From contig NZ_CAXHZD010000006.1 of NCBI RefSeq assembly GCF_964021855.1, positions 18,213-82,212 of the forward strand: DNA of 64,000 bases, given 5' to 3'. Source of the DNA: an uncultured Sulfitobacter sp. GTDB lineage: Bacteria > Pseudomonadota > Alphaproteobacteria > Rhodobacterales > Rhodobacteraceae. The notes beneath the pieces are model-generated. The model was not told the DNA's origin. It ran no database searches and saw only the letters and a program-made list of their open reading frames with translations. The first letter of the stretch is position 1; every line of letters starts with the position of its first letter. The translations under genes and the position numbers were made by a program. Below, one piece after another: positions 1-41,928 of the stretch.

Positions 1-1
1 T

Positions 2-21000: not shown

Positions 21001-24000
21001 CATCAACTTTGTGAACCCGGTCACAGGTGCCTATACCTTCCTGCGGGATGTTGTCTCGATTGATCCTGAATTCGGCGGCAATGATGTGATCAGCACGGGC
21101 CTGTCCACTGATATTATCTTTGGCGGTAACGGCGATGATGTGATCAACGCCGGAACGGTCGACAATGAAACCGACATTGTCTTTGGCGACAACGCCAAGA
21201 TCACCGTGAACGAAACCGGTGTCTTTACCGGGTCCACCGCTGCTGATCCAAGCGGTCAGGAATACGGCGTGATCAGCTTTAACTTTGGCAACGGCCGCTA
21301 TCGCCATGACACGACAGTTGATGGTGTCGCAGGCGCGGATGGATCGGCATCTGACAAGCCCGCACCGAAGGCAGAAGGCTGGAACGAACTGGACGGCGGT
21401 CGGGGTACCTACGGCGACGACGCCGCAGAATTCGTGCGCGACGAAAGCGGTGTGATCATGTCTGGTGTCACAATCGACTGGAGCGTGCGCGACTACAAAG
21501 GCCGCATCCGTAGCGCATATGACGATACCCATAGCGATATCCGTTACCCAGACACAGCAGACGAGCGCCTGTTCGAAGGATACCTCTATGCCGGTCACAA
21601 TGACACGCTGGTCGTAACGTTGAGCGGTCTTGATCGTCACTACGAGACATTTGATCTGTATCTCTATCTTGATGGTGATGACGGTAAGACGAAGCGTCGC
21701 TATGGTACTGTGCGTCAGGTCACCATCGGATCTGAGAGCTATTTCGTGAGCGACCCTGATAACGTGAACTTTGACGGCAGCCTGATCCGTGTGACATCGC
21801 AAGATCCGAATGCGCCGGGTCTGGGGAACTATGTCGTCGCGACGGGCCTATCTGGCGGAGAGATTACCATCGAGATCTCGATCCCATCAAACCAGCGCTA
21901 TGGTTATCCGGTGCTTTCGGGTCTGCAGATTGTTGGCCAGTCCTATAAAATTGACACATTCGAGACTGTCGCAGACAGCATCGGTGGCAATGATGTGATC
22001 CTGACCGGTGGTGGCGAGGATATTATCCTTGGCGGTGCCGGTGGCGACATGATCAACAGCGCTGGCGATGCGGATATGGGGCGCTTTGATGCTGACACGG
22101 TTATCGGTGACGGCGGCATCCTGACCTTCCTGCGTACCGGCGGCGTTGGCCCGGCTGAATTCGGCGAACTGCGCGAAATCGTAAGCCGCAATGGCGACGC
22201 GGGTCCGAACTACAACGACGTAATCGTGACAGGAAATGGCACAGACCGCGTGATTGGCGGGCAGGGCGATGACAACATCAATACCGGTGACATCTTCGTC
22301 CACAACGGCGTCGATGACGCAACTTCGGGCACAGATGTAATCGCTTGGGGCATGAACTTTGGCGCACAAGTCAATGAGGGTTGGGTCGACGGCGAAGCTG
22401 GTTATGTGGCGGGCGGCAGTTGGGTGAACTTTGTCGATCAGGGCAACTTTACGAAAACCTATTCCGAAACCCACGGTTGGGGCCGCCACTACCACACACA
22501 CACCTATCACAAACCTGTCGCCTCGATGCTGACGGCTGATGGTATCCGTGTCACTGTTGGCCAAGACCTAGAGTCCAAGCATGGCCGCGATGCCTATGTC
22601 CAAGACCATGATCAGATTAATGCCGACACTCAGAACGGCAGCCTGTTCAACGGCTACATCTACGCCAAACACAAGTCGGAACTGGGTGTTGATGTCTCGG
22701 GTCTTAGCAATATCTACGGCACTGGCAGCTATGACGTGTACCTTTATATCGATGCCGAGGATCGCGACGCAGCGCGCAATGGCGGTTATCGTCTGGTGTC
22801 CACCAATGGCGATATCATCAGCCTGAACGACCCGCGTGGTGCGAACTTTACCGGCGAATTTATTGAATATGATCCGTCGAACCCAAGCCTGCCTGCGAAT
22901 GTCGTGGTCTTCCGCGGCATAACTGGCGATGCATTCGAACTGCGGATCAACTCTGGCGGCTATTACAAATACGGCAAGTGGTGCTGGTACGATCACGACA
23001 CGCCAAGCATCGCAGGCTTCCAGATTGTTGGCGGTGCTGACAAAGATAACGTGGTTCAGCAAGGTGACTGGGATACCGATCTGGTTCTAGGCGATCAGGG
23101 CTTTATGCGGGTGTTTGACGACGCTGTGTTTGAATTTGCGTCGATGACCGGTGCCCCTGGAACGTCGAACGATACCATTCTGGGTGGGATTGACGGTGAT
23201 GTACTGATCGGTGGCGACGGAAACGATACGATCCGCGGCGAAGACGGCGATGACCGCATCGTCGGCGACAATGCGCATGTTATCATCATTGGTGGTAACA
23301 TCGTTGGTCTTGACCGCTTCTATGACAACAACAGAAAAGAATATCATCACAGCGAGCTCGACAAGCTTGACCCCTATACAGTCGTTGGGTTGCAGCTGAT
23401 TGACGTCACAGTGGGCGGCAACGACGTGATCGAAGGCGGCGGCGATAATGACTGGGCATGGGGCGGAACTGGCGACGATACATATGTATTCGCTGGCTAT
23501 GACCTGGGCACAGACCGCTTGGTCGAATCCGATGTTGTCGCAGGCGGCCACGGATCAAAGCATTATGGCCACGGTACAACGCCCGAAGGGCTGTTGAACG
23601 ACACAGGCGACGCGCTTGACTTCAGCGGCTTTGAGGGTCCGATTAATCTGGACTTGGGCAGCGACAGACGCCAGGTAATGCCGGGTGCCCACGCACATGG
23701 TAAGTACGGTCATGCACACGCCACGCTGTCGATCAAACTGTCCTCGGCTGGTGGTTTCGAAGATGTTTCCGGTTCCAACTACTCTGACGTCATCAAAGGC
23801 AATGACCGCAATAATGCCATTGCCGGAAATGGCGGCAACGACCATATCAAGGGCGTTTCCGGGTCGAACTTCTTGGACGGTGGCGATGGCCATGACCATA
23901 TAGACGGCGGATCGGGCCGGTTCGAAGACAGACGCGAGCATCGCTATGGCGACCTTGCCAGCCAAGTTATCATGGGCGGCGCGGGAGATGATTTGATCCA

Positions 24001-24451
24001 CGGCACCCGTGCAAATGATCTGATTGATGGCGAAGACGGCAACGACCGGATTTACAGCTACGGAGGCTCGGATATTGTGTTCGGTGGGGCAGGGAACGAC
24101 CGCCTGTACGTGTCAGGGTATAACAACATCGTCGTTGGCGGCGCGGGCCACGATTACATCTCGGGTCACCGCAAGTCTTACAACCATTTCGCCTTTGGTG
24201 ATCGCTATGGCCGCTACACCCCGTCAGGTCACGGCTATGGCCACTTTGGTAACTACTGCCACTGGTCCCACCGTTCGAATACATATGTCCATGGTGATCT
24301 GGACGACGCGTTGCGCACCATGGTGACGCAGCAGTTCCTAACGGCGTTTGCCCATGATTTTGCCCGCGCGGATTTCACATTTGATGTGCTCGGAACCAGT
24401 TCCTTGCGGTTCGCGCTGACGCCTTTTGTGACGTCAATCTCTGCCCCGTGA
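2..24451 (+). CDS. Giant secreted repeat protein (more than 8,138 aa inside the window, 5' end probably outside it): Ig-like/beta-sandwich repeats, Calx-beta-like modules, RTX-type GGxGxD Ca-binding repeats, CBM-like modules; T1SS-substrate-like adhesin
   Basis: This is a single uninterrupted ORF. The same frame is also open from nt 2 to the ATG at 35, and no Shine-Dalgarno (SD) sequence precedes 35, so the gene likely starts upstream of the window. Motifs seen: GGNGADIIFGGAGADAINGGNGADQIDSGAGDDSVDGGAGADLIF (nt 9401-9589); Calx-beta-like strands ANIADNDEAGIIVF, VEVIDNDSAKVLVF, LKLLDDDAPTVEI, VMAIDDEIIDGGD (nt ~12860-15960); C-terminal GNDRNNAIAGNGGNDHIKGVSGSNFLDGGDGHDHIDGGSG...GGAGNDRLYV...GGAGHDYISG (nt 23771-24165). 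Confidence 0.95.
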   Translation, partial: TDQTDANSVSTMVVYSSVFTVADIPETQTSGLSLNVGPVTIEAPSVGLDKLAFKDGRLILTIAIGADRAALAFGSTTPAGGTPSNTGGTSVVINGLLVKFDVGIDVLATITGGEPDIGFTGKWEVTADSLLGTIPEVLTFEAYAIKIGYDPDYDASKAPAEVLSDAGQKLVEIGTVKVTFPRFGLTGLITGDVTTPGLIVYENGFSLKTAQLIYSSLSSNPQSATRTDGQTGTIKFGSLLEFVDLRIGVTDFRVVFGQAVTFDGSIFVASGGAKFAPGKPVSADIRDRTTAELTDTVGAPDTEAIRLGLTFTDGRVDGFIWRMDTFRITLGPNLVLTGVDLNLDTGAANDEELISFAAIGAELTVGSVTLMGEARQFAFLGDGSFVTKRGFGVFIGVGSATGATFKWPAWLPIRITEIGVQWADIQAAPEKFVLTLSATITGLQGNPGLKFEGTVKGIQIDVGLLLDGKNPIIGIEALGVSVSGNLFGGQIEGTLIGGIINVDASGNEVPTLDTTTVVADRVFFVGVEAGYAFAGLSGFTIRFAMSELGPLGVLVTAQIPGGILLEPISGLTINNFTGGVDFFTSLPDITTPGELTGPAFQLPANVSVDGWLDMVRGQVLTQYRLMQANPSQSGFAAAFQAPMVFFNDTATTEIYTSELTFNGQVTIKISTDGKILVIGQLNFAADNLSLSARLYANLSKIAAGEATILFLAKIPDQVDIITIEGSLRFGFQTLLGDDVEIEIVQDRAANPTQELAGPGAGTEIGASAINGAGYIDVTFEDLGTAVLDKASVLDLAPELIITTAGVVLDDTLAPVHLTGTTYRFWVIGTATSPISYQYVNQGWSYLNEQTGEVLYSTVVNESSSAVGTATVVTGPWIDIRFIPEIGAELTAANMQAIAAGGAPFVLRNQAGEVVELKTTGEANDKRVIVGKDVIRYFLADTSLPLGKYTVTFTDGAWNRDGLANIATASQSFEIVSPSASIVGPFAKTETGYTADVNVLNSGAKQLIISFRAPSGNALNYASILDSLAEFTMTTPSGGSVTVGDPAAVRMVMGSNGAVTYEVISDAGMTQAEYYEYLTSEGITQFQYTLTGLTYAPGVYEISFDANAFRDAAGNQSIATATPIELVAEGATATLVNPGEGASIDVNRLGARSYIDIQFPTVPTDFTGYDHRSIIDAAPEFTLSGAGLNTIALDPAQAPTRIGENTYRYWLTGDFADGAETTSITVTAIAGAWSYTKAAADITVTGTVIDGVLQIGEVDAVTGIQNPLTLTGIFGAPPSGYVFDIESILDAGAEFTVTAPNGESYTAELVTTTDVVRADDGTGSDSAVQYQYAILLTGTVETTEAVTLTFGADLISYKSTSVETLTLVGANGGTGAINNYASYIDILITPATGDAAPDFAAGDLSKLTLTVGGAAGPAVVSLLDMGNGVTRVFLDGAVAVGDAVLTIAKDAFGADGAKNRALALNFHIAGAQGTIQNPGPDGTIGIGTLNGRGYVDLSFARPDGGLRIGSIIDLAPEFEFIGGNVTIAFDDTQAPEWLNPDDPTIDPDTITEDYRFRYWTTGTYTPGTTINRIASIDGEATVLRNDGTAADNAGTAGFVATTLDTSWIDIRFTPTFGDQIEFDTLGDEITVTGATLSGDAMRIGDGLTVRYFISGNVAAGSVNVTINAGTFSSGANAGEGSETSFQVLQLSGALADPVDGGVIGQLDLNNRGYIDVRFVKPSYAFEIDVASVLDLAPEVIFSATGGTITADLTQAPLYLGMDGDDAVFRIWYIGSFQGSDVADNVTVEFIGGSFNWLDTSGNTIDAVAANNSVELQVQSATSGFFLLLQLGTSELLDTGSFVNGAFTLTRADGSSLTVTGNTARAPPGQIELTITGGTSANPLVAGEFVTLSYGTDAWKYDDDIAIEAQATQTLSITSDLTNGYIDVTFAMLGDLTTNPLFALNIATLNGDEFTLSGAGSSVNILAIAPDDMGNGTYRYYTTGAFNTGTVFVKFEAGTWADLAGNTGAESTESFKVIDRVADGSAPADGDTSSRIFYIEIAGGIRYNVPGISDPLLEERGMARLTFGTYTDPDRGDVFRFTLKFSGTAKVYKLGNIGSIAGSFTIEDGGDTGRPEFWGVAAVQTNLSALAAFGLHVNGNALLQINLSGQERTETISLEGISGDLLGSKITGANVNALVLNRTASLFAEEAVDTTVRQAFAVRDVALDENATIALTKRFDGGVYQWRITSGASTYYVDQDGDNTLSLSSEAREFTMPAGSFAFEVQGSIKLTIPGGNPDTDALAELSGGFYISITRDRAEVFALANVVVGPSDAPLIEGRAQGLFIVNYSGANDGIAGKLSLERTGGSEEDGGSQANNDFAGIDPTQFRLDVTISLQFNTTLALQEFTVPTSFLGLLPPDAEPTVKISAGLPNFSDPDDLSAAPSVYFIASLKGSLTLFDAITLNGSLTLTVSSTPEFINGVDAAGGERTTSTVRLTGVVNGNIAYIGSVFGTVDLKFESIAETVNGQTTLTAGLVGRAQLSLVGGLAIPGVALDAAVSFSLEINTYDETMPLVTFLNDEEYVLAGTVGNARYSDAAIDANGFKTGTIQIANGLYLKFNAEMSIQNIVKLNGNFELSISKATGVIVIEAELDVNARVVGVLDNLSLQGKLVLSEGGMIIYGSFGINAGINGILEFKGQATFGLNTFSSARVISVGGQNVTVGSGVKLVIQGSVEFVGFATAAGKTTIAILSDRTEISFDVVFGLGGLNVRAAGAAGLYYTGVNITGIAIALNVSIDANIARIIDISASGRLTLNTTGSVQRIGSFTLAANSFSLALTGDVQFLKTIKFNASFNVTILNNAWNVNFNANINFFGIATLAANGWFKSDGTFDVSLRGGVLLGSRGFGMEGSFYFNVFYKPVGGVDTIGFSGSASVSLYGLGINWGGASLSFGANIPIGNGGSVPIRVSASASVKIVFVRIRLNLNFTIGYLQLPEPIKLAEVDNGNLILNMGDGNGDRGIGEGAEDETYVIEQIAPGTIRVTYSGREQVFTGVNRITGYGGAGNDVILVREGVTADLLFNGGNGIDLVDYQGSGKATINQGEAVTDFGDQITIGRFAQAESVVHGANVTRVLAAGETPSLLGDRIVSHSNQSISIFGLGGDDFIQQLGAGSATIEGGNGADIIFGGAGADAINGGNGADQIDSGAGDDSVDGGAGADLIFRTLGAAGILTVNGSGSEDTLYVTGSSRADTARLSRGSVVIRNVDNTRGATITGGVGTVQIQLLGGQDTIIVNDISGQGVSRLIIEDDLAVEGPGYTGSAASREGTTDNNADIVIINGTAAADTFALVQDDVDGTDIKVNATWNGATAVAIVLNDFRRDAGDKLFINAGGAGDVIDAHALTQNTVALELNGDAGNDTIIGSQYNDVIDGGADNDTITGGEGFDIFRDGGNTSVGDTLIETFTAYDFGLFEDRFVVGTLSGTSGDVWTAATVENINGIFENVILTGGNGVANRMVVNDLNRQIRVAGSVVSVAAFDGTVTLDAKSEGTPETYHINAPKGSDFVVNINDTGIGFATVRFDGSDDADLIIVNDDTLAVTGAATVTITHINTNQVNLNTAGGGDEITVQSTDIPLYIRSGLGDDTIRIGNAGSLTEIDALVDLDAYDVFGGGTSPIDRGSDTLLIDGSNDAHTSAGTLGLRNLAALEGWIDVTGFNLSAAGISYIAVENIEIDLGAGANIATITSTGLADKTTLRTGGGVDTVNLYAMNGPTFIETGTGVDSVVVGKPVMTTPVTTFTVNDILFGQLTINGGSEALAANEGNDTLRVSDNGDSAVDRGNRLTADEIIGLGMTVGIKYAGFETLVLETSNGNNELHVDGTHAGLTKIDMGDETVSPTDDSSNDVLNIERLGGPTEIKLGQGNDIVRVNYDEYGQQTFVNGLQSGSLSVTYVLELDGEQGSDFYQIGLAGEGTALIRLLDSGLPDQGADSAEINGTNRADLFLFRANLNPAVATGVVAALQLDANGDQIAGILERVEYNGALEGDIQVNGRDGDDIFVLDDTLATFNIFGDAGNDTFQVGQLFASARDASNPYNGLDGIDYYATTQVTLGFLSNGISKNATLNGGTGQDNFTVYSNKAELFLFGDEDDDSFLVRSFVRVDPNDPAAPYTNINGGQGADFVSYNINAPVRIDGGDGFDTLTIVGSEFGDDYVITENGVFGGGLFVSFVGLEKLVVDALQGNDTFYIESTNENVQVEIIGGIGSDNINIAGADLNAITEGGAITVVSNSLNGHNGLIQTIVSSNDARYNAIFAKDVVANIADNDEAGIIVFNDYDALRVFEDALTSPLLIHNSYGIALSRAPEDIVTITITPTRGTESSQAAGGKGVMVNGSEIYTTLTFDASNWDQVQYVTVTGVNDALAEGRQVINLRHTTVQGTISTDEQAYDGVVVADVLVEVIDNDSAKVLVFSRLEAGSTVDTIDADVVGEDVLLTANGDSIYVALSRAPTGPVTVTFNVNDGATVSFSGPSGTQSGSSVTIGFDSSNWNTPRLLQLAANDDNAPEGVHYTRVTPVITSGQDAFLGLGQGDIARGLAANINADISQTRNAVALYRSADIQIFRGTQNATISEVWTVTINGEEYSATFGAGATSLTVAQGLRDAIRFDARKPEGLTAVVISGVLRVEDTAGFSIDAKVQTPFYNNGFEIEATANTTMRVFIDGQAFELETLAPAGATMPVVGQRALEVAVVTLTSSVSDGTRNAAGGIVIGATWNIVLDDLTVSATAVTGDTLQSIVRRLIGKLAGSDYAASELYRSATIVPSIVGGITADATWNILLDGQLVTYTSVAADVPNGIYGIGEKIAEQITALNQNYVVSVRTGGAITVSRPLGNPFSIVSVSSNGVTDLVAAGANSIAPPQVVENAIVIFKRPEAAGVPPFGLQVVRLSNPAAPTSQNGASSSPLRVLSSTYWDYTSVSIAPITGVIAQGTTWGLRLSAADIAQGADAAILENYDYVAGQNNEQLAPSAFDLKLLDDDAPTVEIIESGNSTDLAEREEEDARVVDSFDVVLTGALTGNKWVIVDVTPLKTRTYNGDLAFDASANFGEANRVQVRVAAPIAELSFTGSAVAGEVWSVALYDDSTYQATILIVNYTVQASDQLSDIRGGLITQINAQAGYQAVLAGDAIKITRAGVTPTPRFFVEATITPDTRGTILTRTVPDFNFDNVLEIEFAGIPAVGETWDVTFVGKLYSQTVAAGDSLATLAAKLAASIQADDDARIAAGGARLYDVSVDGTVVSVQVLADKRATLAASGEITPVGTALADSDGAMVLRQYVKFDAGNWNVAQTITVMAIDDEIIDGGDAKVFAAFDERVNSIRGPISVIGGVSPTAVELNNPILLPGESNEKLPSGTADSIETTDGVTTVTDHALTHVNKLYGERPGFDPRINGTATIYDIATMGITGTSDRVDILSSAQDILSFASGTKIGEGTPFSVNLTVDGNDATVTGAAEVFGTPDQSAAVLGMLDWLEATVDLTAGATTGLYQITLSPTAGSTVGQEVFSYTTTAGNNFAGTIALELAKAINQSSTQFRARAVVNLVGETRLRIVEVGDATGGFDIGVVTPADAKVIIGGTPVAGQYAQAGVKWTMAAIRVLDTTAGATWTLSVDGTVRSALSTGDAASITQTLANKLPGSLRPVVSGSFATIAAALPANFATGSDRLYSYAPVNANLRVDEAEQVDTLTIFNGQSPAADVGVLTSTRLSGLGMGDDVVIAGKRILGGITYSGIEALDIRLGRNGDVLTIESTHEGKTRIDTGNGDDVVNVKSTSGHTFITTGQGNDIVNVGSDRGVLDQITGMLVLDMGDDAGDRLNLDDSLDVKANVMTLTGSRLTGLDMPSVAEIQQINVRAIGGTFTLSFAGSVGIATLGAFDYDAMSVSAIAAAAQSAREQIAAITGYDVTVEIIQTKNGIAYLVEFGGLAGGLDVAMLSVESTANLVAAPDTTTDVNVVEVRVGTTTPRRDNVEVLRLSADSGTFTLSFLVPDVNGIVRLQTTEAIAWDATEAQILAALDPILNPNNGYDFLPYTHNVDVDRLGGAIYLTFQGALADARIASIDTRGLGGTYTQTDISIATPVVGGIWTVTVSDLVTPTQIAGLPAAQSVFSYTAVAGDTAQTIARALADLIAAAQGPHLVTDAVDGVLTIISGSANPITVNVTGALGAAGQQTNRIATTLQKDGIGYHNVEFLDLTLGSNDDVLNIQGTTAHTTLHLGEGDERIYVSSEAAETLTSDTRFLTGHLNGITGLLNIDAGTGRHQLMISDEAAILGDGTSDQPAVITDNRAKAQAAASARGIDDTFSTVTDIYVVGIAPAAIGYTADAQGNFLSGVTYWTGFGDDTIFIDASHIRDIPGAQTVTSLNTGLGNDTVIITLDAGDGFFALNTQGPYNQYADVRDADTVTSPGTTRPLVIFGGQDNDKIDTGSVDDIVFGDRGVLEYLDETGAVSLRLGTGGLTDVTDGVARAPTSFKSTFLNVGGVDTINTFTGTDIIIGGQAGDVIDAGQGDNIVIGDNGEVLLATEAPNFGTFRYALISAFTVDATTGGDDIIRTGYGADLILGGFGNDTITANVGETATQSDAVNLILGDFGAAFWNDDGDLSTLDRVVSTDTFVGGNDTIRTGRSSDIIIGGDANDDIDASQGVNLVIGDSGEILSGAAATNIHAFGLALQTIRTIEDTRGGVDIIRTGDDTDIILGGQAGDDIDAAQGNNIVLGDNGYVIFETDAPNFGNLAIALVEISTTSPTTGGNDVIRTGFGADLIMGGGADDTITANVGETATQSDAINLIFGDFGAAFWNIDGNLATLDLVTSIDTAFGGRDIINTGRGDDIVLGGYERDEIYASEGANIVLGDSGLLESGASETNVPGFGLALRTLKSIADALGDDDKIATGASTDLIFGGNGNDMIDAGQGDNIVLGDNGTALFDSTVTNFGNLPIAILSVTTQSPTIGGNDMITTGLGNDIVFGGAKNDNIVTDFAGGFAGTDGQDIVLGDHGFINFVNPVTGAYTFLRDVVSIDPEFGGNDVISTGLSTDIIFGGNGDDVINAGTVDNETDIVFGDNAKITVNETGVFTGSTAADPSGQEYGVISFNFGNGRYRHDTTVDGVAGADGSASDKPAPKAEGWNELDGGRGTYGDDAAEFVRDESGVIMSGVTIDWSVRDYKGRIRSAYDDTHSDIRYPDTADERLFEGYLYAGHNDTLVVTLSGLDRHYETFDLYLYLDGDDGKTKRRYGTVRQVTIGSESYFVSDPDNVNFDGSLIRVTSQDPNAPGLGNYVVATGLSGGEITIEISIPSNQRYGYPVLSGLQIVGQSYKIDTFETVADSIGGNDVILTGGGEDIILGGAGGDMINSAGDADMGRFDADTVIGDGGILTFLRTGGVGPAEFGELREIVSRNGDAGPNYNDVIVTGNGTDRVIGGQGDDNINTGDIFVHNGVDDATSGTDVIAWGMNFGAQVNEGWVDGEAGYVAGGSWVNFVDQGNFTKTYSETHGWGRHYHTHTYHKPVASMLTADGIRVTVGQDLESKHGRDAYVQDHDQINADTQNGSLFNGYIYAKHKSELGVDVSGLSNIYGTGSYDVYLYIDAEDRDAARNGGYRLVSTNGDIISLNDPRGANFTGEFIEYDPSNPSLPANVVVFRGITGDAFELRINSGGYYKYGKWCWYDHDTPSIAGFQIVGGADKDNVVQQGDWDTDLVLGDQGFMRVFDDAVFEFASMTGAPGTSNDTILGGIDGDVLIGGDGNDTIRGEDGDDRIVGDNAHVIIIGGNIVGLDRFYDNNRKEYHHSELDKLDPYTVVGLQLIDVTVGGNDVIEGGGDNDWAWGGTGDDTYVFAGYDLGTDRLVESDVVAGGHGSKHYGHGTTPEGLLNDTGDALDFSGFEGPINLDLGSDRRQVMPGAHAHGKYGHAHATLSIKLSSAGGFEDVSGSNYSDVIKGNDRNNAIAGNGGNDHIKGVSGSNFLDGGDGHDHIDGGSGRFEDRREHRYGDLASQVIMGGAGDDLIHGTRANDLIDGEDGNDRIYSYGGSDIVFGGAGNDRLYVSGYNNIVVGGAGHDYISGHRKSYNHFAFGDRYGRYTPSGHGYGHFGNYCHWSHRSNTYVHGDLDDALRTMVTQQFLTAFAHDFARADFTFDVLGTSSLRFALTPFVTSISAP
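2318..5800 (+). repeat. Intragenic array of beta-sandwich (Ig-like) units, each opening with [GSP][YW][IV]D[IVL]x[FI]
   Basis: The motif occurs 8 times: GYIDVTF (~2318), PWIDIRF (~2621), SYIDIQF (~3455), SYIDILI (~4141), GYVDLSF (~4474), SWIDIRF (~4813), GYIDVRF (~5131), GYIDVTF (~5764). Most copies are followed by LDLAPE[FLV] and later Y/FR[FY]W..G. Confidence 0.6.
9401..9589 (+). repeat. Internal RTX-type nonapeptide (GGxGxDxUx) block, about 6 repeats
   Basis: Translation is LGGDDFIQQLGAGSATIEGGNGADIIFGGAGADAINGGNGADQIDSGAGDDSVDGGAGADLIF, with a 9-residue period that matches the hemolysin-type Ca-binding repeat consensus. Confidence 0.85.
19270..21215 (+). repeat. Diverged tandem super-repeat, period ~603-606 nt (~201 aa), about 3 copies plus a partial leading copy, built from xGxDxIxGGxGxDxI units
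   Basis: Anchor motif APNFGTFRYALISAFTVDATTGGDDIIRTGYGADL starts at nt 19591, APNFGNLAIALVEISTTSPTTGGNDVIRTGFGADL at 20191, and VTNFGNLPIAILSVTTQSPTIGGNDMITTGLGNDI at ~20799. The internal string NVGETATQSDA[VI]NLI[LF]GDFGAAFWN is repeated almost exactly. DNA identity between copies is clearly below 100% by eye, roughly three quarters. Confidence 0.8.
23771..24165 (+). repeat. C-terminal RTX-like Ca-binding repeat block of the giant protein
   Basis: Repeats seen: GSNYSDVIKGNDRNNAIAGNGGNDHIKGVSGSNFLDGGDGHDHIDGGSG...GGAGDDLIHGTRANDLIDGEDGNDRIYSYGGSDIVFGGAGNDRLYVSGYNNIVVGGAGHDYISG. A further block, GGIDGDVLIGGDGNDTIRGEDGDDRIVGDN, lies at ~23183-23275. Confidence 0.8.
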
Positions 24452-24582
24452 AATTTGGAGATCATCAAGCCTAAGATATTCAACCAAAATATTTTTTTAG
24501 ATGGGGAAATTGAATGCAGTTTTCTCTTACTTTTAAGTTACTATCGTTGGGATGACATGTCCTGACTTCTAGGAATTGCACT

Positions 24583-26427
24583 TTGACTGAACACACCACG
24601 GCCGCCGGATCTTCATCTACTTCTGATGAGTCTTTTTTGAACGCAGACACCTTAGACAAGCTGCGCAGCGGAACAGATATGGCGCAGGTCGCTGCGGCGT
24701 GGTTGTCAGCCTTTGCAAAGCAAACGCCGAGCATACAGCAGGGGCTTGTTGTTATGGCAGGCACGGGCAAAGCCAAGTTTGAACCGATTGCCATGTGGCC
24801 TGACGGTGCCAGCCCTGCACCTGAGCTTATGCGCGCGGTTGATGGCTGCCTAAAGGGCAAGCGCATGCTTGTTGAGACGGGTGCCAATGACAACGCTGCC
24901 ATCGCTGTTCCCCTGCTGATCGGGGGTCAGTTGCGCGGTGTGCTGGCCGTACTGGCTGACAATTCCGTCCAAACGGATTTGCGCCGCGTTGTTGAGCAGT
25001 TGCAATGGGCATCGGGCTGGATCGAGGCCGTTGTGCGGCGCCAACGGGTTAGCGGAAATGATAATCTGGTAACGGTGATTGAACTGCTCGCGACCAGCCT
25101 GCACCACACACGTTTTTCCGAAGCGGCCACCGCCGTCGCGACTGAATTGGCCGGTGCACTAGGCTGCGAACTGGTGGCCATCGGCATGATGCGGGGCAAG
25201 CACGTGCGCCTGCGGGCCTTGTCGAATAGCGCCACATTCGGCAAACGCGCGACGCTGGTAAGGCTGATCGAAGCTGCGATGGACGAAGCCGTCGATCAGC
25301 AGGCCGTGATCGCGCATCCACCGCTAGAAGGATCGCCCGCGCGGGTGCGTCGTGCGCATTCCGCACTGGCCGATCACGAGGGCGGGACCGGGCTGTGCAC
25401 GGTGCCCCTGACAGAACAGGGCAAAACAATCGGTGCCATGCTGCTCCAACGCAGCAGCAAAGACGGGTTCGACGCCGGTAGTATTCAAATCGCTGAACAG
25501 GCCGCCGTTCTGGTGGGGCCTGTCCTTGATCTCAAGCGCCGCGAGGATCGTTGGATTCCTGCTAAAATCTGGGATGCAACCAAGAACGTTTTCAAGATGC
25601 TGTTCGGCCCGCGCCATGCGCTTTTGAAGCTGGGGGTGATCACTGCAATCGCAGTGGCGGCCTTTTGTTGGTACGCGACAGGAACATATAGGATCACGGC
25701 AACCACAGTTGTCCAAGGCAAGGTTCAGCGGGTCGTCACAGCCCCGATTGCAGGGTATTTGGTTCAAGCCGAAACCCGGGCGGGTGATTTGGTCGCAGAG
25801 GGTCAGATTATGGCGCGCCTCGAAGACCGGGACATTCGCCTTGAACGGTTGAAATGGTTGGGCGACCGTACCAAGCAAGAGCAGGAATACAGTCAGGCCA
25901 TCGCACAGCGCGAGCGGACGAAGATGCGAATACTGGCCTCGCAAATTGAACAGTCGGACGCGCAGATTTCTTTGCTGGATCAACAGCTGGAACGGATGAC
26001 AATTCGCGCGCCGTTTGACGGGTTGGTGGTGTCCGGTGATCTAAGTCAAGCGCTTGGTGCGCCGCTGGAGCGCGGTGATGTGCTGTTTCAGGTGGCCCCG
26101 TTGAACGAATACCGGGTGACAATGCGTGTGGATGAACGCGACATTCGCGATATTGAGGCAGGCGATGCTGGCCCGTTGGTGCTCAGCTCCTTGCCTGACA
26201 CGCCTTACCGCGTGGCCGTGCAACGCATTACGCCGATTTCCAGCCCACTGAACGGCGCAAATGTCTTTGAGGTCGAGGCCTCGATAGAGGACGGTCCGAT
26301 TGCGGCATTGCGCCCCGGAATGGAGGGCGTTGCCAAGATTGAGGTCGATGAGCGGCGTCTGGTAAGTATCTGGACCCGAAGGCTTGTGCTTTGGGCCCGT
26401 ATGACCTTCTGGTCTTGGAAGCCTTAA
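24583..26427 (+). CDS. Membrane-fusion (HlyD-family) protein with two N-terminal cytoplasmic GAF-like domains and one TM helix
   Basis: A TTG start at 24583 is preceded by AGGAA with 6-nt spacing; the first ATG is at 24679. GAF-like segments include ...AIAVPLLIGGQLRGVLAVLAD and ...LCTVPLTEQGKTIGAMLLQRS. The TM helix is LLKLGVITAIAVAAFCWYA (~nt 25618-25680). The HlyD-like region reads VQRVVTAPIAGYLVQAETRAGDLVAEGQIMARLED, then a coiled coil, then MTIRAPFDGLVVSGD. Confidence 0.85.
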   Translation: MTEHTTAAGSSSTSDESFLNADTLDKLRSGTDMAQVAAAWLSAFAKQTPSIQQGLVVMAGTGKAKFEPIAMWPDGASPAPELMRAVDGCLKGKRMLVETGANDNAAIAVPLLIGGQLRGVLAVLADNSVQTDLRRVVEQLQWASGWIEAVVRRQRVSGNDNLVTVIELLATSLHHTRFSEAATAVATELAGALGCELVAIGMMRGKHVRLRALSNSATFGKRATLVRLIEAAMDEAVDQQAVIAHPPLEGSPARVRRAHSALADHEGGTGLCTVPLTEQGKTIGAMLLQRSSKDGFDAGSIQIAEQAAVLVGPVLDLKRREDRWIPAKIWDATKNVFKMLFGPRHALLKLGVITAIAVAAFCWYATGTYRITATTVVQGKVQRVVTAPIAGYLVQAETRAGDLVAEGQIMARLEDRDIRLERLKWLGDRTKQEQEYSQAIAQRERTKMRILASQIEQSDAQISLLDQQLERMTIRAPFDGLVVSGDLSQALGAPLERGDVLFQVAPLNEYRVTMRVDERDIRDIEAGDAGPLVLSSLPDTPYRVAVQRITPISSPLNGANVFEVEASIEDGPIAALRPGMEGVAKIEVDERRLVSIWTRRLVLWARMTFWSWKP

Positions 26428-26431
26428 GCGC

Positions 26432-28582
26432 ATGGCCGGTTCGCTATTCTCTCCTTCGTGGTACAGGGTCAAAGACCTGAAGCCGCGGCTGCGCAGACAT
26501 GTGAACATCCATCGTCATGATTACCGTGGCCGTATCTGGTTTATCCTTCAGGATCTGGCCACGGGTCGGTCACACCGATTTTCACCTGCCGCCTATCGCA
26601 TGGTCGGGCTGCTTGATGGCAAGCGCAGCTTGGGCGAAGTCTGGGACATCGCAAACGAACAGCTGGGCGAGCGCGCACCGACCCAAGACGAGGCGATCCG
26701 GCTGCTGGGGCAGCTTCATTCAGCGGATGCTTTGGTCGCGGATGTATCCCCCGATAGTCGTGAACTGTTTCGCCGTCACCAACGTCACAAACGGATGGAG
26801 ATCAAACAAAAGATCTGGTCGCCGTTGGCGGTACGCATTCCAATCTGGGATCCCGACCGGTTTCTTACTGCAACGTTGCCTTTCGCGCGGCCGTTTCTGA
26901 CCAAAACCTTTGCGGTGATCTGGTTGCTGCTGGTGCTGACCGCAGGGGTGTTTGCGGTAATGAACATCGGCGCGTTAACCTCAAACCTTACCGACCGTGT
27001 GTTGAACCCCGGTAATCTGGCGGTCCTGTGGCTGGTCTATCCGGTGGTAAAGGCGTTCCATGAATTGGGGCACGGCTATGCCGTCAAGAAGTACGGCGGC
27101 GAGGTGCACGAGATCGGGATCATGTTTCTGGTGCTGATCCCTGTCCCTTATGTCGATGCGTCAGCGGCGTCGGCGTTTCGGGACAAACACAAGCGGATGC
27201 TTGTTGGTGGCATCGGTATCATGATTGAACTGCTGCTGGCCTCTATCGCCTTGTTTGTTTGGCTCAATGCTGAATCCGGTGCCGTGCATGCGATTGCCTT
27301 TAACGTGATGCTGATTGGCGGTATTTCGACGTTGTTGTTCAATGGGAATCCCCTGCTGCGTTTTGACGGCTATTACGTATTGGCGGATTGGATCGAGATC
27401 CCCAATCTCAGCGGGCGATCCACCAATTACCTGAACTACCTGATACAGCGATATTTGTACGGGATGCGCGACGCAGACCAGATTACATCGCTGCGGTCCG
27501 AGCGGGTATGGTTCGTTTTCTACGGCATAGCAGCGTTCATCTATCGCATGTTCATTATGTTCGCGATTATCGCCTATATTGCCGGCCGCTTTTTTATCAT
27601 CGGGGTGGTGCTGGCCATATGGGCCGCGACCACACAGCTTTTGCTGCCCATCGGAAAAGGGATTAAGTTTTTGTCAGGAAGTCCAAAGCTCCGTACCAAT
27701 CGGCCTCGGGCTATTATCACAACTGTTGGCATTATCGCGGTTATTCTAGCCGGGTTTTTCCTGATGCCGTTCCCGTCTTACAGCATCGTGGATGGCGTCG
27801 TTTGGCCCAGCCAACAAGCGCAGGTTAGGGCAGGGACCAACGGGTTCGTCACGAGGGCTGTCATTTCCACGGACCAACCGGTGGAACCTGACGATTTGAT
27901 GCTGCAGCTTGATGACCCTTTCATGCGCGCACGCCTTGATCTGATCGACGCGCAATTGGCCGGGCTTGAGATTCAGCGCAGCGCATTAATTCGCAGCGAT
28001 CGTGTGCAATCCGCCCTGATCGCTGAAGAAATCGACGTGGTATTGAGCGACCGCGCGCGCCTTGTTGACGAACTGGATGCGCTTGATATTCGGGCCCCCC
28101 GGTCTGGTATTGCCGTGCTGCCTAACGCCGCTGATCTGAAAGGTTCATTTATCGCAAAGGGCAGTGTTGTGGGCTATGTCGTGTCCCCTCAGGATACCCA
28201 GACCGTGCGCGCGATGGTAAGTCAGAACAACATCGATCTTGTGCGGAACGACACCCGTTCCGTCAGTGTCATCCCGGTGGAATGGAACCCCGAACCGCTG
28301 CAAGCTGAGATTTTGCGCGAGGTGCCGGGTGCCACGCAGCAATTGCCGACGCCCGCCTTGGGAACCGCAGGCGGGGGCAAGGTGCCTGTTGATCCGGGTG
28401 ATCCAAACGGGGTGCAGACGCTGGGACGTTTTTTTGAAATTGAAATCCTGATGCAATCTCCGTCCGACGATATCTTGTTGGGGCGGCGGGTTCGGGTCCG
28501 GTTTGATCACGGGTACACGCCGCTAGGGTTTCAGGCCTACCGGTCGCTGCGGCAGCTGTTCTTGAGGCTATACAATGTCTGA
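26432..28582 (+). CDS. Polytopic M50/site-2 metalloprotease fused to an N-terminal PqqD/RRE-like domain and a C-terminal HlyD-like periplasmic domain
   Basis: HELGH lies at nt 27059-27073 and a second S2P motif, NGNPLLRFDGYY, lies downstream. At least 7 hydrophobic helices are visible. The N-terminus YRGRIWFILQDLATGRSHRFSPAAYRMVGLLDGKRSLGEVWDIANEQLGERAPTQDEAIRLLGQLHSADALV looks like a PqqD-type winged helix. The C-terminus LDALDIRAPRSGIAVLP plus a short coiled coil looks like a membrane-fusion (MFP) domain. The gene starts 4 nt after the upstream stop. Confidence 0.9.
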   Translation: MAGSLFSPSWYRVKDLKPRLRRHVNIHRHDYRGRIWFILQDLATGRSHRFSPAAYRMVGLLDGKRSLGEVWDIANEQLGERAPTQDEAIRLLGQLHSADALVADVSPDSRELFRRHQRHKRMEIKQKIWSPLAVRIPIWDPDRFLTATLPFARPFLTKTFAVIWLLLVLTAGVFAVMNIGALTSNLTDRVLNPGNLAVLWLVYPVVKAFHELGHGYAVKKYGGEVHEIGIMFLVLIPVPYVDASAASAFRDKHKRMLVGGIGIMIELLLASIALFVWLNAESGAVHAIAFNVMLIGGISTLLFNGNPLLRFDGYYVLADWIEIPNLSGRSTNYLNYLIQRYLYGMRDADQITSLRSERVWFVFYGIAAFIYRMFIMFAIIAYIAGRFFIIGVVLAIWAATTQLLLPIGKGIKFLSGSPKLRTNRPRAIITTVGIIAVILAGFFLMPFPSYSIVDGVVWPSQQAQVRAGTNGFVTRAVISTDQPVEPDDLMLQLDDPFMRARLDLIDAQLAGLEIQRSALIRSDRVQSALIAEEIDVVLSDRARLVDELDALDIRAPRSGIAVLPNAADLKGSFIAKGSVVGYVVSPQDTQTVRAMVSQNNIDLVRNDTRSVSVIPVEWNPEPLQAEILREVPGATQQLPTPALGTAGGGKVPVDPGDPNGVQTLGRFFEIEILMQSPSDDILLGRRVRVRFDHGYTPLGFQAYRSLRQLFLRLYNV

Positions 28583-30569
28583 TCGCATGATCATGCGACC
28601 GGGTCTGTTGGGCGGCTTTTATCCGGAACGCAGTGATGAAAGGCTCAGCACGCCGGACCGGATTATGGCCAATGCCTATGGCCGTCTGCAGCAGGTTTTT
28701 GCGCGGCGTCCTGTCTCGAAACGTCTGTTCTTGAGGCGGGTAAAGCGGGAGGGTCACCAACTGCAAGACCTTAGCAACTCAGAATTAGCTGAGATGCGTG
28801 TTGCCTTGGCAGAAGACTTGCAACTGAACGGATTGGGACGTCAAAATACTGCTGAGGCATTTGCCCTCGTGCGCGAGGTATCAGGGCGCGTTTTGGGGAT
28901 GCGACATTTTGATGTCCAGCTGGTTGGTGGCCTGATCATGCTGCAAGGGCAGATCGCCGAAATGGCCACAGGCGAGGGAAAGACCCTGACGGCCACGCTG
29001 ACTGCCGCCGTTATGGCATTGTCCGGGGTGCCGGTGCATGTGGTTACGGTCAATGATTTTCTGGCCAGCCGCGATGCGGATTGGATGCAGCCGCTGTTTG
29101 CTTTCTTGGGACTTAGCGTTGGTGTGATCCTTGAGGATATGGACGTTGACGAACGCCGTGCCGCCTATGCCTGCGACATTACATATTGCACCAACAAGCA
29201 GCTCGCGTTCGATTATCTAAAGGATCGCCTGATCCTTGAGGCAGAAACGCGGCCCCTGCATATGGCACTTGAGGGGTTGTTGCATGATCGCGCGCGACGG
29301 GAAGAGGTCATGATGCGTGGGCTGTGCTTTGCCATCGTTGACGAGGCGGATTCTGTATTGGTGGACGAAGCGCGCACACCCCTGATCATCGCACAAAAGG
29401 GCGACGCGTCTGAGATGGAAACGATCTATCGCCAAGCGATCAACACCGCCCGAACCCTGCAAACGCCACGCGATTTCACCATGTCGGAACGTGACTTCCG
29501 GATTGATTTCACCGACCTTGGCAAAGCGCAGCTTAGACGGTCTACGCAGCAGTTGGGTGGTGTGTGGGCAACTGAAACCCACCGCGAGGAATTGGGCCGT
29601 CAGGCATTGTCGGCGTTATGGCTGTACAAGCGCGACAAACATTATCTGGTTCAGGACGAAAGCATTCAAATCGTCGATGAATACACGGGCCGTGTTATGG
29701 CAGACCGCTCTTGGGAACGCGGCCTGCATCAGATGATCGAGGTCAAAGAAGGTGTCGACATTTCGATGCGCCAAGAAACCTTGATCCGGATCAGCTATCA
29801 AAAGTTTTTTCGCCGATATATCCGCCTGTCTGGCATGACCGGCACCGCGCAAGAGGTCGCCGGAGAGTTAAGCTCGGTCTACCGGCTGCGCACGCGCAGG
29901 GTGCCCACGAATAAGCGGTCGCGTCGGTGGGACAAAGGCGAATACTGCTATGCCACGAGTGATTATAAGTGGCAGGCGGTTCTACGCGAGGTCGTTAGGA
30001 AGCACAAAAAGGGCAGGCCTATTCTGATCGGGACGCAATCGGTCGAGGCGTCGGAACACTTAAGCGGGCTGTTGACCCAGCAAGGGCTGCACCACCGCGT
30101 GTTGAACGCCCGCCAAAATGAAGCGGAGTCCGAAATCATCGCCCAAGCGGGTCTGACGGGTCGTATTACCGTTGCGACGAATATGGCGGGCAGGGGGACG
30201 GACATCTCGTTGGATGATACCACTCGTGCCGCTGGCGGCCTGCATGTCATTGCGACCGGGCGCCATGATGCCGCGCGCATTGATCGGCAACTGTACGGCC
30301 GCGCGGCCCGCCAGGGGGACCCGGGAAGCCACATCACCTTTGTGTCGCTCCAAGATGATTTGCTGCGCGTGTTCTACGGGAGCAAGTTAAAACCGCTGAT
30401 CGCGCTGACCTCGTGGGGCAGGGGGTGGGTGCCCGGATTTATCGCGCGCCCCTCTGTGAACCTAGCGCAATGGACCAGCGAAAAGCGGAACAGTAGGATC
30501 CGGCAAAACCTGCTAAAGGCAGATGACAGCCTTGATGAATTGCTTGCATTTAGCGGGCGCGGAGAATGA
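28575..30569 (+). CDS. SecA-like motor ATPase (664 aa): NBD1, shortened PPXD and NBD2 present; most of the helical scaffold, wing domain and C-terminal tail absent
   Basis: Motifs seen: MATGEGKTLTATL (Walker A, nt 28962-28985); IVDEADSVLVDEARTPLII (DEAD at 29340-29351); TVATNMAGRGTDI; GGLHVIATGRHDAARIDRQLYGRAARQGDPGS. As I remember E. coli SecA, these correspond to MRTGEGKT, DEVDSILIDEARTPLII, TNMAGRGTD and GRSGRQGD. Only about 75 aa follow motif VI. The start overlaps the upstream stop (ATGTCTGA). Confidence 0.9.
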   Translation: MSDRMIMRPGLLGGFYPERSDERLSTPDRIMANAYGRLQQVFARRPVSKRLFLRRVKREGHQLQDLSNSELAEMRVALAEDLQLNGLGRQNTAEAFALVREVSGRVLGMRHFDVQLVGGLIMLQGQIAEMATGEGKTLTATLTAAVMALSGVPVHVVTVNDFLASRDADWMQPLFAFLGLSVGVILEDMDVDERRAAYACDITYCTNKQLAFDYLKDRLILEAETRPLHMALEGLLHDRARREEVMMRGLCFAIVDEADSVLVDEARTPLIIAQKGDASEMETIYRQAINTARTLQTPRDFTMSERDFRIDFTDLGKAQLRRSTQQLGGVWATETHREELGRQALSALWLYKRDKHYLVQDESIQIVDEYTGRVMADRSWERGLHQMIEVKEGVDISMRQETLIRISYQKFFRRYIRLSGMTGTAQEVAGELSSVYRLRTRRVPTNKRSRRWDKGEYCYATSDYKWQAVLREVVRKHKKGRPILIGTQSVEASEHLSGLLTQQGLHHRVLNARQNEAESEIIAQAGLTGRITVATNMAGRGTDISLDDTTRAAGGLHVIATGRHDAARIDRQLYGRAARQGDPGSHITFVSLQDDLLRVFYGSKLKPLIALTSWGRGWVPGFIARPSVNLAQWTSEKRNSRIRQNLLKADDSLDELLAFSGRGE

Positions 30570-30580
30570 TGGAGACGATA

Positions 30581-31384
30581 ATGAAAACCCTTACACTGAC
30601 ATCCGCACTGGTGATCGCGCTTGGCAATTCGGCTGCCTTGGCCGGAGAATTTGACTGCCTGATGGACCCGTCTCTTGTGGTCGAGATCGGGAGCGCCGAG
30701 GCCGGGATCATCGAGAGCGTTTCGGTGCAAAGGGGGGATTTGGTCACCCAAGGGCAGCTTGTCGCAAAGTTGGAATCTGGGGCTGAACAGGTCGCCTTGG
30801 ATTACGCCCATGCGCGCGCAACCGACACGTCACCGCTGGAAATCGCGCAAAGCCGCATTGACCTGTTAGCCACCGAAGCACAGCGTGCCAAAGATCTGGG
30901 GGCCAAGAACCTAGTCCCGCAATCCATCGTCGATTCAGCCGTCAGCCAACATCAACAGGCGATCCTTGAACTGCGTCAGGCGGAATTTGAAAAACGGCTC
31001 GCTGCCTTGGATGAAACCCGCGTCGCCGCGCAACTGGCAAGACGTGACATTCATGCGCCCGTCGACGGGATTGTTATCACTCGCATGATTGGGCCCGGCG
31101 AATACGTATTTGCGCAAGCCCCGATTATCCAAATTGCCCGCATCGATCCGCTGCATATCGAGGTTTTTTTGCCCACTGAGCTTTTCAAAAACGTAAAGGT
31201 TGGCCAGATCGCCAAAGTCAAACCAGCAGCCCCCATCGGGGGAGAGTACGATGCCGAAGTGATTGTAATAGACCGCGTCTTTGACGCGGCAAGTGATACA
31301 TTTGGCGTGCGTCTGAGATTGGACAACCCCGAGGGAAAACTGGTTGCGGGCATTGATTGCAAAATCGAGATCGGCGGATTGTAA
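30581..31384 (+). CDS. Periplasmic membrane-fusion/adaptor protein (HlyD/RND-adaptor family) with a signal peptide
   Basis: The ATG at 30581 is preceded by GGAG with 6-nt spacing and yields MKTLTLTSALVIALGNSAALA. An alternative ATG at 30566 overlaps the SecA-like stop (ATGA). Lipoyl-like hairpins are AGIIESVSVQRGDLVTQGQLVAKLE and IHAPVDGIVITRMIGPGEYV, with a coiled coil between them. Confidence 0.85.
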   Translation: MKTLTLTSALVIALGNSAALAGEFDCLMDPSLVVEIGSAEAGIIESVSVQRGDLVTQGQLVAKLESGAEQVALDYAHARATDTSPLEIAQSRIDLLATEAQRAKDLGAKNLVPQSIVDSAVSQHQQAILELRQAEFEKRLAALDETRVAAQLARRDIHAPVDGIVITRMIGPGEYVFAQAPIIQIARIDPLHIEVFLPTELFKNVKVGQIAKVKPAAPIGGEYDAEVIVIDRVFDAASDTFGVRLRLDNPEGKLVAGIDCKIEIGGL

Positions 31385-38632: not shown

Positions 38633-38722
38633 CAGTCGGCTCCTTTCAAAATTCAAGTTTGGGGATTGGCGGCTGATGGTGACCCCGGCCGAGGGACGGG
38701 AGCCGGGGCCACGAAAGCCTGC

Positions 38723-41362: not shown

Positions 41363-41415
41363 TTTTAAAGTTCCTTGATATGATTGATGTAAGAGTAAGG
41401 GGTAGGGGTGACTGA

Positions 41416-41928
41416 TCAGTCGACCCGGACGCGGTAGGTGTTAAGGGCAGTTTCACCGGCCTTTAACGGTTCTGAGAATGTCCAGCGAACCGAGGCGATC
41501 TCAGTTTCGGGCAGGGGCTCTTTGTCCAGGGTGCCATCAGCGTTAGCGACCAAACGCATCGCGGGCAGTGTGGACCACTCAAGACCTTCTTGCTCTGGAT
41601 CGAGTTCAGCTTGGACTTCGAATACCGCTGCGATCGAGGCGGTTTCGCCGCCCAGCGTGAGCGACACGCCCTCGGGCACAGGAGCCGCGATCACGATGCC
41701 TGCCATTGCGTCGGCAGAAGTATTTTCGTGCCGCAGCTGGTATTGGATAATTTCACCCGGCCGGACACTGGTGCGCTCGACAAGTTTTTGCTGACCGTCG
41801 TCGTTCGTTTCAACTACGAGGAAGGAGAAGCTACTAGATAGGGCTTCTGCGGCGGCTGGAAGAACCATCATCGACAGGGCCATTCCGGTGACGATCGCTC
41901 TTGGTATATTGGGGAGATAAATATGCAT
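41416..41928 (-). CDS. Small secreted single-domain DUF11-like protein (170 aa)
   Basis: The signal-like segment is MALSMMVLPAAAEA, with an alternative start at 41883. It contains PGEIIQYQLRHENTSADAMAGIVIAAPVPEGVSL. It lies 53 nt upstream of the 879-aa gene on the same strand. Confidence 0.7.
   Translation of the reverse strand: MHIYLPNIPRAIVTGMALSMMVLPAAAEALSSSFSFLVVETNDDGQQKLVERTSVRPGEIIQYQLRHENTSADAMAGIVIAAPVPEGVSLTLGGETASIAAVFEVQAELDPEQEGLEWSTLPAMRLVANADGTLDKEPLPETEIASVRWTFSEPLKAGETALNTYRVRVD

Follow-up and report, generated by a model that had tools for sequence, protein, structure and literature searches.

A conserved operon of membrane-fusion proteins, an M50 protease and a truncated SecA-like ATPase beside giant RTX genes: a candidate envelope export and processing machine

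In a 64,000-nucleotide stretch of DNA from an uncultured Sulfitobacter sp. (the whole of which is called the window below), four co-directional open reading frames (ORFs) are tightly packed on the plus strand at 24583-31384, 3' of a giant RTX gene. They encode a GAF domain protein with a membrane-fusion protein (MFP) module, an M50 protease fused to a second MFP module, a truncated SecA-like ATPase and a stand-alone MFP. Across genomes, this module adjoins giant RTX genes far more often than expected by chance. The reading that we favour, and to which we assign about even probability, is that the four genes encode a machine that spans the envelope and is devoted to exporting and processing the adjacent giant protein, similar to a type I secretion system (T1SS) but without its ABC transporter. 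This reading is preferred because the operon is tight, its link to one class of giant proteins is conserved and the presumed cargo has a conserved, leader-like N-terminal motif. It also draws on the nearest relatives of the M50 protease, which cut the leaders of ribosomally synthesized and post-translationally modified peptides (RiPPs), on the three MFP modules, on the presence of TolC in the operon in several lineages and on the absence of ABC genes nearby. A SecA-like motor taking the place of the ABC ATPase in a machine that could serve the giant or a peptide had been suggested from the letters of this DNA alone (the sequence-only reading). Comparative genomics lends this idea support, and the general model had been reached independently (PMC4452313).

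The locus type was first described in silico by Kamneva, Poudel and Ward (PLoS One 2015, PMC4452313), who recognized 'secondary SecA_DEAD domain proteins' that lost the wing/scaffold domain and found them in a conserved locus together with Peptidase_M50/HlyD, GAF/HlyD and HlyD/biotin-lipoyl proteins and sometimes an outer-membrane efflux protein (OEP). These authors proposed that SecA_DEAD is the ATPase replacing the ABC transporter, with the M50 protein as a possible membrane component. Their table includes a roseobacter, Ruegeria pomeroyi (SPO2713-2718), and gives two more neighbours of the locus, SapC and a conserved hypothetical protein; M. extorquens AM1 META1p2402-2399 is another of their examples. 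The text of that paper makes no mention of RTX, calcium, hemolysin, giant neighbours, LEPR-XLL or a specific cargo. A transposon mutant of the R. pomeroyi orthologue SPO2713 ('secA2') is viable and shows a fitness loss of log2 -0.42 in one co-culture (PMC10041152); beyond this datum, no experimental study of the locus after 2015 was found in the literature searched. The window operon is a further instance of a locus type known only from computation. The statement of the sequence-only reading that no system of this composition has been characterised holds for experiments in the literature searched, but the composition itself had been published in silico. Three elements are new here: the module is paired with giant RTX proteins in a conserved manner, the LEPR-XLL motif is put forward as a possible signal for targeting or cleavage, and an ABC exporter is consistently missing from the vicinity.

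The giant gene, whose product is the presumed cargo or partner of the module, enters the window with its C-terminal 8,149 codons at 1..24451 on the plus strand, in an ORF open from window base 2. Its stop at 24451 is separated from the module by a 131-nt AT-rich spacer (24452..24582). The first gene of the module (24583..26427, TTG start) encodes the 614-aa GAF-MFP and is followed after a 4-nt gap by the gene for the M50-MFP (26432..28582), a single protein of 716 aa that combines an RRE-like N-domain, a polytopic M50 (site-2-type) metalloprotease and a C-terminal MFP. An 8-nt overlap (ATGTCTGA at 28575-28582) leads into the gene for the SecA-like ATPase (28575..30569), whose 664 aa comprise the two nucleotide-binding domains NBD1 and NBD2, the PPXD and the start of the scaffold helix. 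The stand-alone secreted MFP of 272 aa (30566..31384) overlaps this gene by ATGA at 30566-30569, or lies 11 nt beyond it if translation starts at the alternative ATG at 30581, which gives the 267-aa product called in ENA. ORF calls and direct reading of the sequence agree with the sequence-only reading on all of these positions and junctions. It saw no convincing hairpin terminator before the module; a terminator-like hairpin does occur at 24503-24526, weak with 10 pairs of which only 3 are G-C, but terminator-like sites in this region are not enriched over shuffled sequences. The spacer is markedly AT-rich compared with about 56% GC for the genome, and might carry an internal promoter or regulatory element for the module; consensus scans of 24452-24582 returned nothing above chance.

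In the GAF-MFP, a cytoplasmic Pfam GAF_2/GAF domain (residues 179-315) is connected by one transmembrane (TM) helix (346-364) to periplasmic HlyD_3 and HlyD_D23 matches (378-575). The best family match of the M50-MFP is the NCBIfam daptide intramembrane metalloprotease (daptide_HExxH, NF041824), with an E-value of 1.2e-43 and 149.8 bits, below the cutoff of 300; the model of the YydH/LiaK epipeptide protease (NF058609) gives E 9e-10 and 38.6 bits, below its cutoff of 225. The HELGH motif (residues 210-214, nt 27059-27073) and the NPLLRFDG motif (306-313, nt 27347-27370), previously described as intact, show no or almost no variation among 55 homologues of 57-90% identity, L212 and R310 being the only variable positions. 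At least seven membrane segments are predicted between residues 159 and 445. The C-terminal 270 residues (446-716) are modelled by AlphaFold2 (mean pLDDT 75) as a typical MFP fold with a two-helix alpha-hairpin, and the model matches AcrA, MexA and MacA in Foldseek at about E 1e-11. The protein is 89% identical to that of S. litoralis, which marks the organism as a relative of Sulfitobacter and Roseobacter. Several homologues have precomputed PqqD matches and several are named 'PqqD family' by NCBI. The window protein's own Pfam matches to PqqD (E 0.016) and Peptidase_M50 (E 0.23) are weak, and the earlier label 'RRE-like S2P-MFP' derives its support from the NCBIfam match, the invariant motifs and the annotation of homologues.

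The SecA-like ATPase matches Pfam SecA_DEAD (E 1e-104), SecA_PP_bind, that is the PPXD (E 9e-24), and P-loop_SecA (E 8e-58), with no match to Pfam SecA_SW. Walker A (MATGEGKT, nt 28962-28985), DEADS (nt 29340-29354), TNMAGRGTDI and GRAARQGDPG are all intact. Its closest relatives of solved structure are SecA2 and SecA. Aligned with the 781-aa SecA2 of PDB 6t4h, the protein covers residues 31-611 and stops about 10 residues into the scaffold helix, hence without the wing domain, the two-helix finger and the C-terminal tail, in agreement with its first description as a SecA-type motor lacking the C-terminal third. It is predicted to be soluble, with no TM segment. The product of the fourth gene is an RND-type MFP (NCBIfam RND_mfp, E 3e-38, above cutoff; Pfam HlyD_D23 and HlyD_3) with a signal peptide and no TM anchor. 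The Pfam and NCBIfam matches, combined with the fold of the M50-MFP C-terminus, confirm the three HlyD-type MFP modules that had been read from the translations.

The module is widespread and its gene order conserved. A scan of one genome per species confirmed a relative of the M50-MFP in 521 stretches, and 80 loci (L004-L083) were fetched and compared by tblastn; the denominators 69, 59, 37 and 52 used for gene neighbours are subsets of these 80. The M50-MFP family comprises more than 7,798 clusters at 90% identity and, with E<=1e-30, 4,310 clusters at 50% identity, and its length is nearly fixed at 711-720 aa. The GAF-MFP gene lies directly upstream of the M50-MFP gene on the same strand in 68/69 loci, and a SecA-like gene is found within 1.6 kb downstream in 57/59. 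The fourth MFP was detected in 33 of 37 loci; in seven betaproteobacterial loci it stands upstream, together with a TolC/OEP gene. Thus, the co-occurrence of the four genes that the sequence-only reading had proposed to look for is observed, and the set in its fixed order extends over Alpha-, Beta- and Gammaproteobacteria, Nitrospinota, Myxococcota and Desulfobacterota. The window SecA-like protein is 44-66% identical to the SecA-like proteins of distant syntenic loci and 87-90% identical to those of two close Roseobacter relatives; a housekeeping secA is absent from the window.

Further genes accompany the module in part of the loci. SapC (PF07277), previously encountered in an operon for type I secretion of an S-layer, is present in at least 14 loci and DUF3467 (PF11950) in at least seven, and TolC lies inside the operon in Betaproteobacteria, Methylosinus and Thalassospira; the window ORFs include no SapC, no DUF3467 and no TolC or other outer-membrane factor. 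A variant operon on the Thalassospira marina plasmid NZ_CP024200 (193606-212571) consists of an LEPR-XLL giant, DUF3467, GAF-MFP, M50-MFP, MFP and TolC, with an M50-MFP only about 35% identical to that of the window. DUF3467 was considered as a SecB-like chaperone and dropped (hhalign probability 0.4%, nothing significant in a profile search of the PDB). Three clusters of the crude gene calling (c6, c7 and c8) turned out to be spurious ORFs antisense to the GAF, SecA and M50 genes of GC-rich genomes, not neighbours. RefSeq annotation of the module is problematic, with 'prepilin peptidase' or 'DEAD/DEAH box helicase' given for the SecA-like gene and 'PqqD family', 'site-2 protease', 'biotin/lipoyl-binding' or 'hypothetical' for the M50-MFP gene. 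Such problems affect L085 (23074-25098), L088 (22222-24138), L087 (22139-24124) and L093 (1725-1878).

The link to giant RTX genes was assessed in the 52 loci with at least 3 kb of upstream sequence, a giant being called as a same-strand ORF of at least 900 aa with at least three GGxGxD motifs that ends less than 1.7 kb before the module. Such a giant lies directly upstream of the module in 37/52 loci, where most run to the edge of the fetched 10 kb, and three further loci have a giant downstream or divergent. The adjacency seen in the window, which the sequence-only reading had wanted checked in other genomes, is therefore a recurrent one. On annotated plasmids, complete giants directly upstream of the module have 12,918 aa in Pseudosulfitobacter, 10,603 aa in Pontibrevibacter, 10,518 aa in Mesorhizobium ciceri, 8,847 aa in Methylosinus, 8,148 aa in Alisedimentitalea and 4,033 aa in Thalassospira. 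Bordetella avium, one of the genomes in Kamneva et al., has a 19.4-kb 'putative adhesion' gene, BAV1945, whose locus tag is 2-3 numbers away from the M50/GAF genes BAV1942/1943 listed in the table of that paper (PMC4452313).

The giants next to the module share a distinctive N-terminus. All 12 module-adjacent giants with a visible N-terminus begin with 20-60 Lys/Arg-rich residues followed by [LMI]E[PS]Rx[L/F]L[SNA]A[DN], a motif of the LEPRxLLSAD type; examples are MEALEPRFLLSADP, LDPMEPRVLLSADP, VEPIEPRILLSADP, FDTLEPRVLLNADV, FEALEPRLLLSADF and FEAMESRILLSAND. Three of the plasmid giants are annotated as 'LEPR-XLL domain-containing protein'. Run against the NCBIfam LEPR-XLL model (NF012209), four of four N-termini scored above cutoff at the position of the motif, the other eight being assigned by motif scans. 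Under the same constraints, the motif is absent elsewhere in about 1.9 Mb of six-frame translation. In the Alisedimentitalea giant, the motif lies just upstream of a misplaced annotated start codon, and in L053 a frameshift separates it from the body of the gene. The leader has no hydrophobic core of the Sec type. No literature discussing the LEPR-XLL motif was found.

The giant ORF of the window runs past the 5' end; the gene as called on an ENA contig of 158 kb encodes 11,756 aa, which places its N-terminus about 10.9 kb upstream of the window start. HemolysinCabind repeats are found internally and at the C-terminus, with GGxGxD motifs up to nt 24137, and these are the only repeats detected; the Calx-beta label given in the sequence-only reading is not borne out, as no Calx-beta domain is detected at E<=1e-4. 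The window giant has repeat units in common with the Pontibrevibacter and Thalassospira giants at 30-35% identity. Searches for the N-terminus among its homologues gave partial sequences: the first 800 window residues as query retrieved only fragments of up to 1,374 aa, the most upstream 500 aa of an orthologue retrieved partial proteins lacking it, and a metagenome scan gave nine loci, with the giant ORF reaching the 5' edge of the locus in seven and the N-terminus present in none. The 500-aa window-giant query has two matches on the 68.7-kb contig SWCD01000475.1, about 64 kb apart and 62% identical (L099, L100), both in ORFs that extend beyond the sequence fetched, which points to a pair of giant paralogues or to one exceptionally long gene.

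C-termini of the module-linked giants are diverse and not conserved between loci, and a conserved C-terminal secretion signal was rejected on this ground, VFDExSGxF occurring in one subgroup only. In that subgroup (L036, L042, L045, L065, L069, L074, L076 and L080-L083), VFD(E/D)xSGxF lies about 60-100 residues before the C-terminus and is followed by an acidic stretch and then a conserved Trp; the window giant ends otherwise (...SLRFALTPFVTSISAP). A zinc-protease signature resembling that of matrixins (GWFVDxTP ... LLxVxxHEIGHxxGxDH) is also present in many module-linked giants; in the orthologues of the window giant (P0287, P0288) it lies near the N-terminus, and in L057, L067, L083, L005 and L081 near the C-terminus. 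Judged by this signature, it could be an autoprocessing domain.

No ABC exporter accompanies the module. Scanning for Walker A and LSGGQ signature motifs within 10 kb of the 80 loci and on the source contig of the window (L001) revealed no T1SS-type ABC exporter, only two small unrelated ABC ATPases, and the regions 5' of five plasmid giants contain unrelated genes and no such exporter. A canonical T1SS flanking the 5' end of the giant gene, which the sequence-only reading had named as a possible objection, is thus missing in the relatives covered by these scans. Within the window, there is no ABC exporter, and the sole ABC system, at 60-63 kb, is a FecCD/periplasmic-binding-protein importer, exactly as had been stated along with the lack of an outer-membrane factor. 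No SecY-like or SecY2-like gene occurs among the scanned window ORFs. Small precursor peptides were also sought: no conserved small precursor ORF was found in the loci, and a cluster of small ORFs downstream of L041 was discarded as a set of HigB/HigA-type toxin-antitoxin genes. RiPP-modifying enzymes are absent from the conserved neighbouring gene families and from the annotated plasmid operons. Between the two substrates envisaged at the outset, the giant or a peptide, these results favour the giant and speak against the peptide.

The favoured export model can be laid out as a sequence of steps. The giant would carry an N-terminal leader made of a basic stretch and LEPRxLLSAD, as seen in the 12 relatives and presumed for the window protein. 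The cytoplasmic RRE-like domain of the M50-MFP may bind this leader, and the intramembrane M50 protease may remove it, by analogy with RiPP leader peptidases of the same subfamily. At the membrane complex of M50 and MFP, the soluble SecA-like ATPase, with its PPXD clamp and both NBDs and no SecY-inserting finger, could then thread the unfolded giant. Two anchored MFP modules and a free one would assemble into a periplasmic duct leading to a TolC-type channel, whose gene lies within the operon in other lineages and probably at another site in this genome. The GAF domain might gate the machine in response to a cytoplasmic ligand. Outside the cell, calcium-driven folding of RTX repeats counteracts back-sliding in T1SS substrates, and we assume that it would help here in the same way. 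A bolder proposal, to which we give somewhat less than even probability, is that the module and the LEPR-XLL leader constitute a distinct and widespread secretion pathway in which an RRE-like domain recognises the leader, the M50 protease cuts it and a truncated SecA drives proteins of 4,000-13,000 residues through an MFP/TolC duct, with neither an ABC transporter nor SecY.

Several observations weigh against the export model. Every mechanistic step in it is conjectural; the route across the inner membrane is its weakest point, since the set contains no known protein channel and we know of no M50 protease shown to conduct polypeptides. In 12 of the 52 loci, no giant is found within 10 kb. Three relatives (the Thalassospira plasmid, L054 and L070) have the module and an LEPR giant in an operon without the SecA-like gene, so that the motor must be either dispensable or encoded elsewhere. 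The leader of the window giant is postulated from its relatives, and the match of the M50-MFP to Pfam PqqD, the presumed recognition domain, is weak (E 0.016, residues 38-99). Finally, the giants keep the C-terminal RTX repeats typical of ABC-driven T1SS substrates, and such a T1SS could be encoded elsewhere.

This last point leads to an alternative that we regard as rather unlikely, in which a canonical ABC/MFP/TolC T1SS located elsewhere exports the giant C-terminus first and the module, controlled by its GAF domain, plays an accessory part in holding, cleaving or releasing the N-terminal LEPR end. To the same limited degree, the module might then be a functional analogue of LapD/LapG, which control LapA, and the SecA-like protein might serve as an unfoldase or chaperone. 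Besides the C-terminal RTX blocks of the giants, the presence of SapC, known from an ABC-type T1SS operon, at many loci would fit such a role, as would the relatives without a SecA-like gene and the fact that M50 proteases are known as processing enzymes, not channels. However, three MFP modules in one operon, joined in several lineages by TolC, are parts of a duct and not of a regulator, and no ABC exporter lies near any of about 85 loci.

The relationship of the ATPase to SecA2 and SecA suggests a two-step route instead, where an accessory SecA2 feeds the giant through SecYEG into the periplasm and the MFPs and TolC serve only the outer-membrane step. Gram-positive accessory SecA2 systems dedicated to adjacent giant adhesins are an established precedent, but the window protein ends at the start of the scaffold helix, without the two-helix finger and wing domain used at SecY, the LEPR leader is devoid of a Sec-type hydrophobic core, and the window ORFs that were scanned include no SecY2-like gene; we consider this route doubtful, and more so than the accessory role just described. 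Least probable by our estimate, indeed very improbable, is that adjacency to the giant is incidental and that the module matures and exports a small RiPP-like peptide, as the M50 relatives YydH/LiaK and the daptide protease do. The NCBIfam matches to the daptide and epipeptide proteases and the PqqD/RRE-like N-domain speak for such a system. Against it, the loci share no conserved small ORF, those seen being toxin-antitoxin genes, no RiPP-modifying enzyme figures among the conserved neighbours or in the plasmid operons, and the one consistently conserved neighbour is the giant gene.

If the LEPR-XLL pathway is indeed distinct, it would add a type to the secretion systems of Gram-negative bacteria, one whose cargo can be recognised by its signal. 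The giant RTX and adhesin proteins, which rank with the largest proteins of bacteria, influence biofilms, symbioses and attachment to hosts. To our knowledge, ABC-driven T1SS is the only case in which it is understood how proteins of some 10,000 residues leave the cell. The module is very common, its length and sequence are highly conserved, and experimental work has passed it over since 2015. A cargo signal and a specific neighbouring cargo gene turn a 'secretion-related locus' into a directly testable pathway, and Ruegeria pomeroyi DSS-3, Methylobacterium extorquens, Mesorhizobium and Bordetella avium are tractable carriers. Should the SecA-like motor work without SecY, the known roles of SecA-family ATPases would be widened.

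Other genes lie 3' of the module in the window. Just downstream and convergent with it, a 242-aa secreted protein with a GRYQF-type motif is encoded at 31824-32552 on the minus strand. It has no Pfam or NCBIfam match and is found on all three contigs that bear the window's SecA-like protein. The region 32894-50199 holds a second group of very large surface-type proteins, unrelated to the RTX giant: two of 1,920 aa and 879 aa on the minus strand and one of 1,957 aa on the plus strand, with DUF11, SdrD_B, NPCBM_assoc and GEVED domains. No LEPR-type start was found for them within the window. A LuxR-type response regulator (42477-43091) lies between these large proteins.

Compared with known systems, the module is closest to the Kamneva-type locus, with which it shares the four proteins and their order, OEP and SapC as neighbours in some cases and the published hypothesis. 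The window's SecA-like ATPase is a SecA_DEAD protein with a PPXD and without wing/scaffold, and the adjacent genes encode the Peptidase_M50-HlyD, GAF-HlyD and HlyD/biotin-lipoyl proteins of that locus; the difference is that the paper gives no cargo link, whereas a link to a cargo class is added here. With canonical T1SS (HlyB/HlyD/TolC; LapB/LapC/LapE), it has in common MFP adaptors, in some lineages a TolC-type channel, and a neighbouring giant, the presumed substrate, with RTX repeats near the C-terminus. It differs in that a SecA-like ATPase and an MFP-fused M50 protease stand in place of the ABC transporter, in its three distinct MFP modules and in the conserved N-terminal motif of the presumed cargo. 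Of the defining T1SS components, an HlyB-type ABC transporter is absent from the window, from within 10 kb of the 80 loci and from the regions 5' of the five plasmid giants; the MFP is present in three modules; a TolC-family factor is absent from the window and present in the operon of relatives, and may lie elsewhere in the genome; and RTX repeats lie near the C-terminus of the giant, with C-termini that are not conserved between loci.

Peptidase-containing ABC exporters, such as the colicin V system CvaAB-TolC and related bacteriocin exporters, resemble the proposed machine in that a protease of the inner-membrane exporter recognises and cuts a leader and an MFP couples it to TolC. Those exporters use a C39 cysteine protease and ABC domains for small-peptide cargo, unlike the M50 protease and SecA-like motor of the module, with presumed cargo of 4,000-13,000 residues. 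In the Gram-positive accessory Sec system (SecA2/SecY2, serine-rich giant adhesins), too, a giant surface protein is encoded next to an additional, non-essential SecA paralogue, which is dedicated to it. However, SecA2 keeps the scaffold and two-helix finger and works with SecY2 or SecY, with no MFP, M50 or TolC; the window has no SecY-like protein among its scanned ORFs and a SecA-like protein that ends before the finger. RiPP M50 leader peptidases (YydH/LiaK, daptide HExxH) are the best sequence relatives of the protease half and are membrane-embedded HExxH proteases acting on an N-terminal leader, as is proposed for the module. The window protein scores far below the cutoffs of their models and has no precursor or modification genes beside it, and its protease is fused to an MFP.

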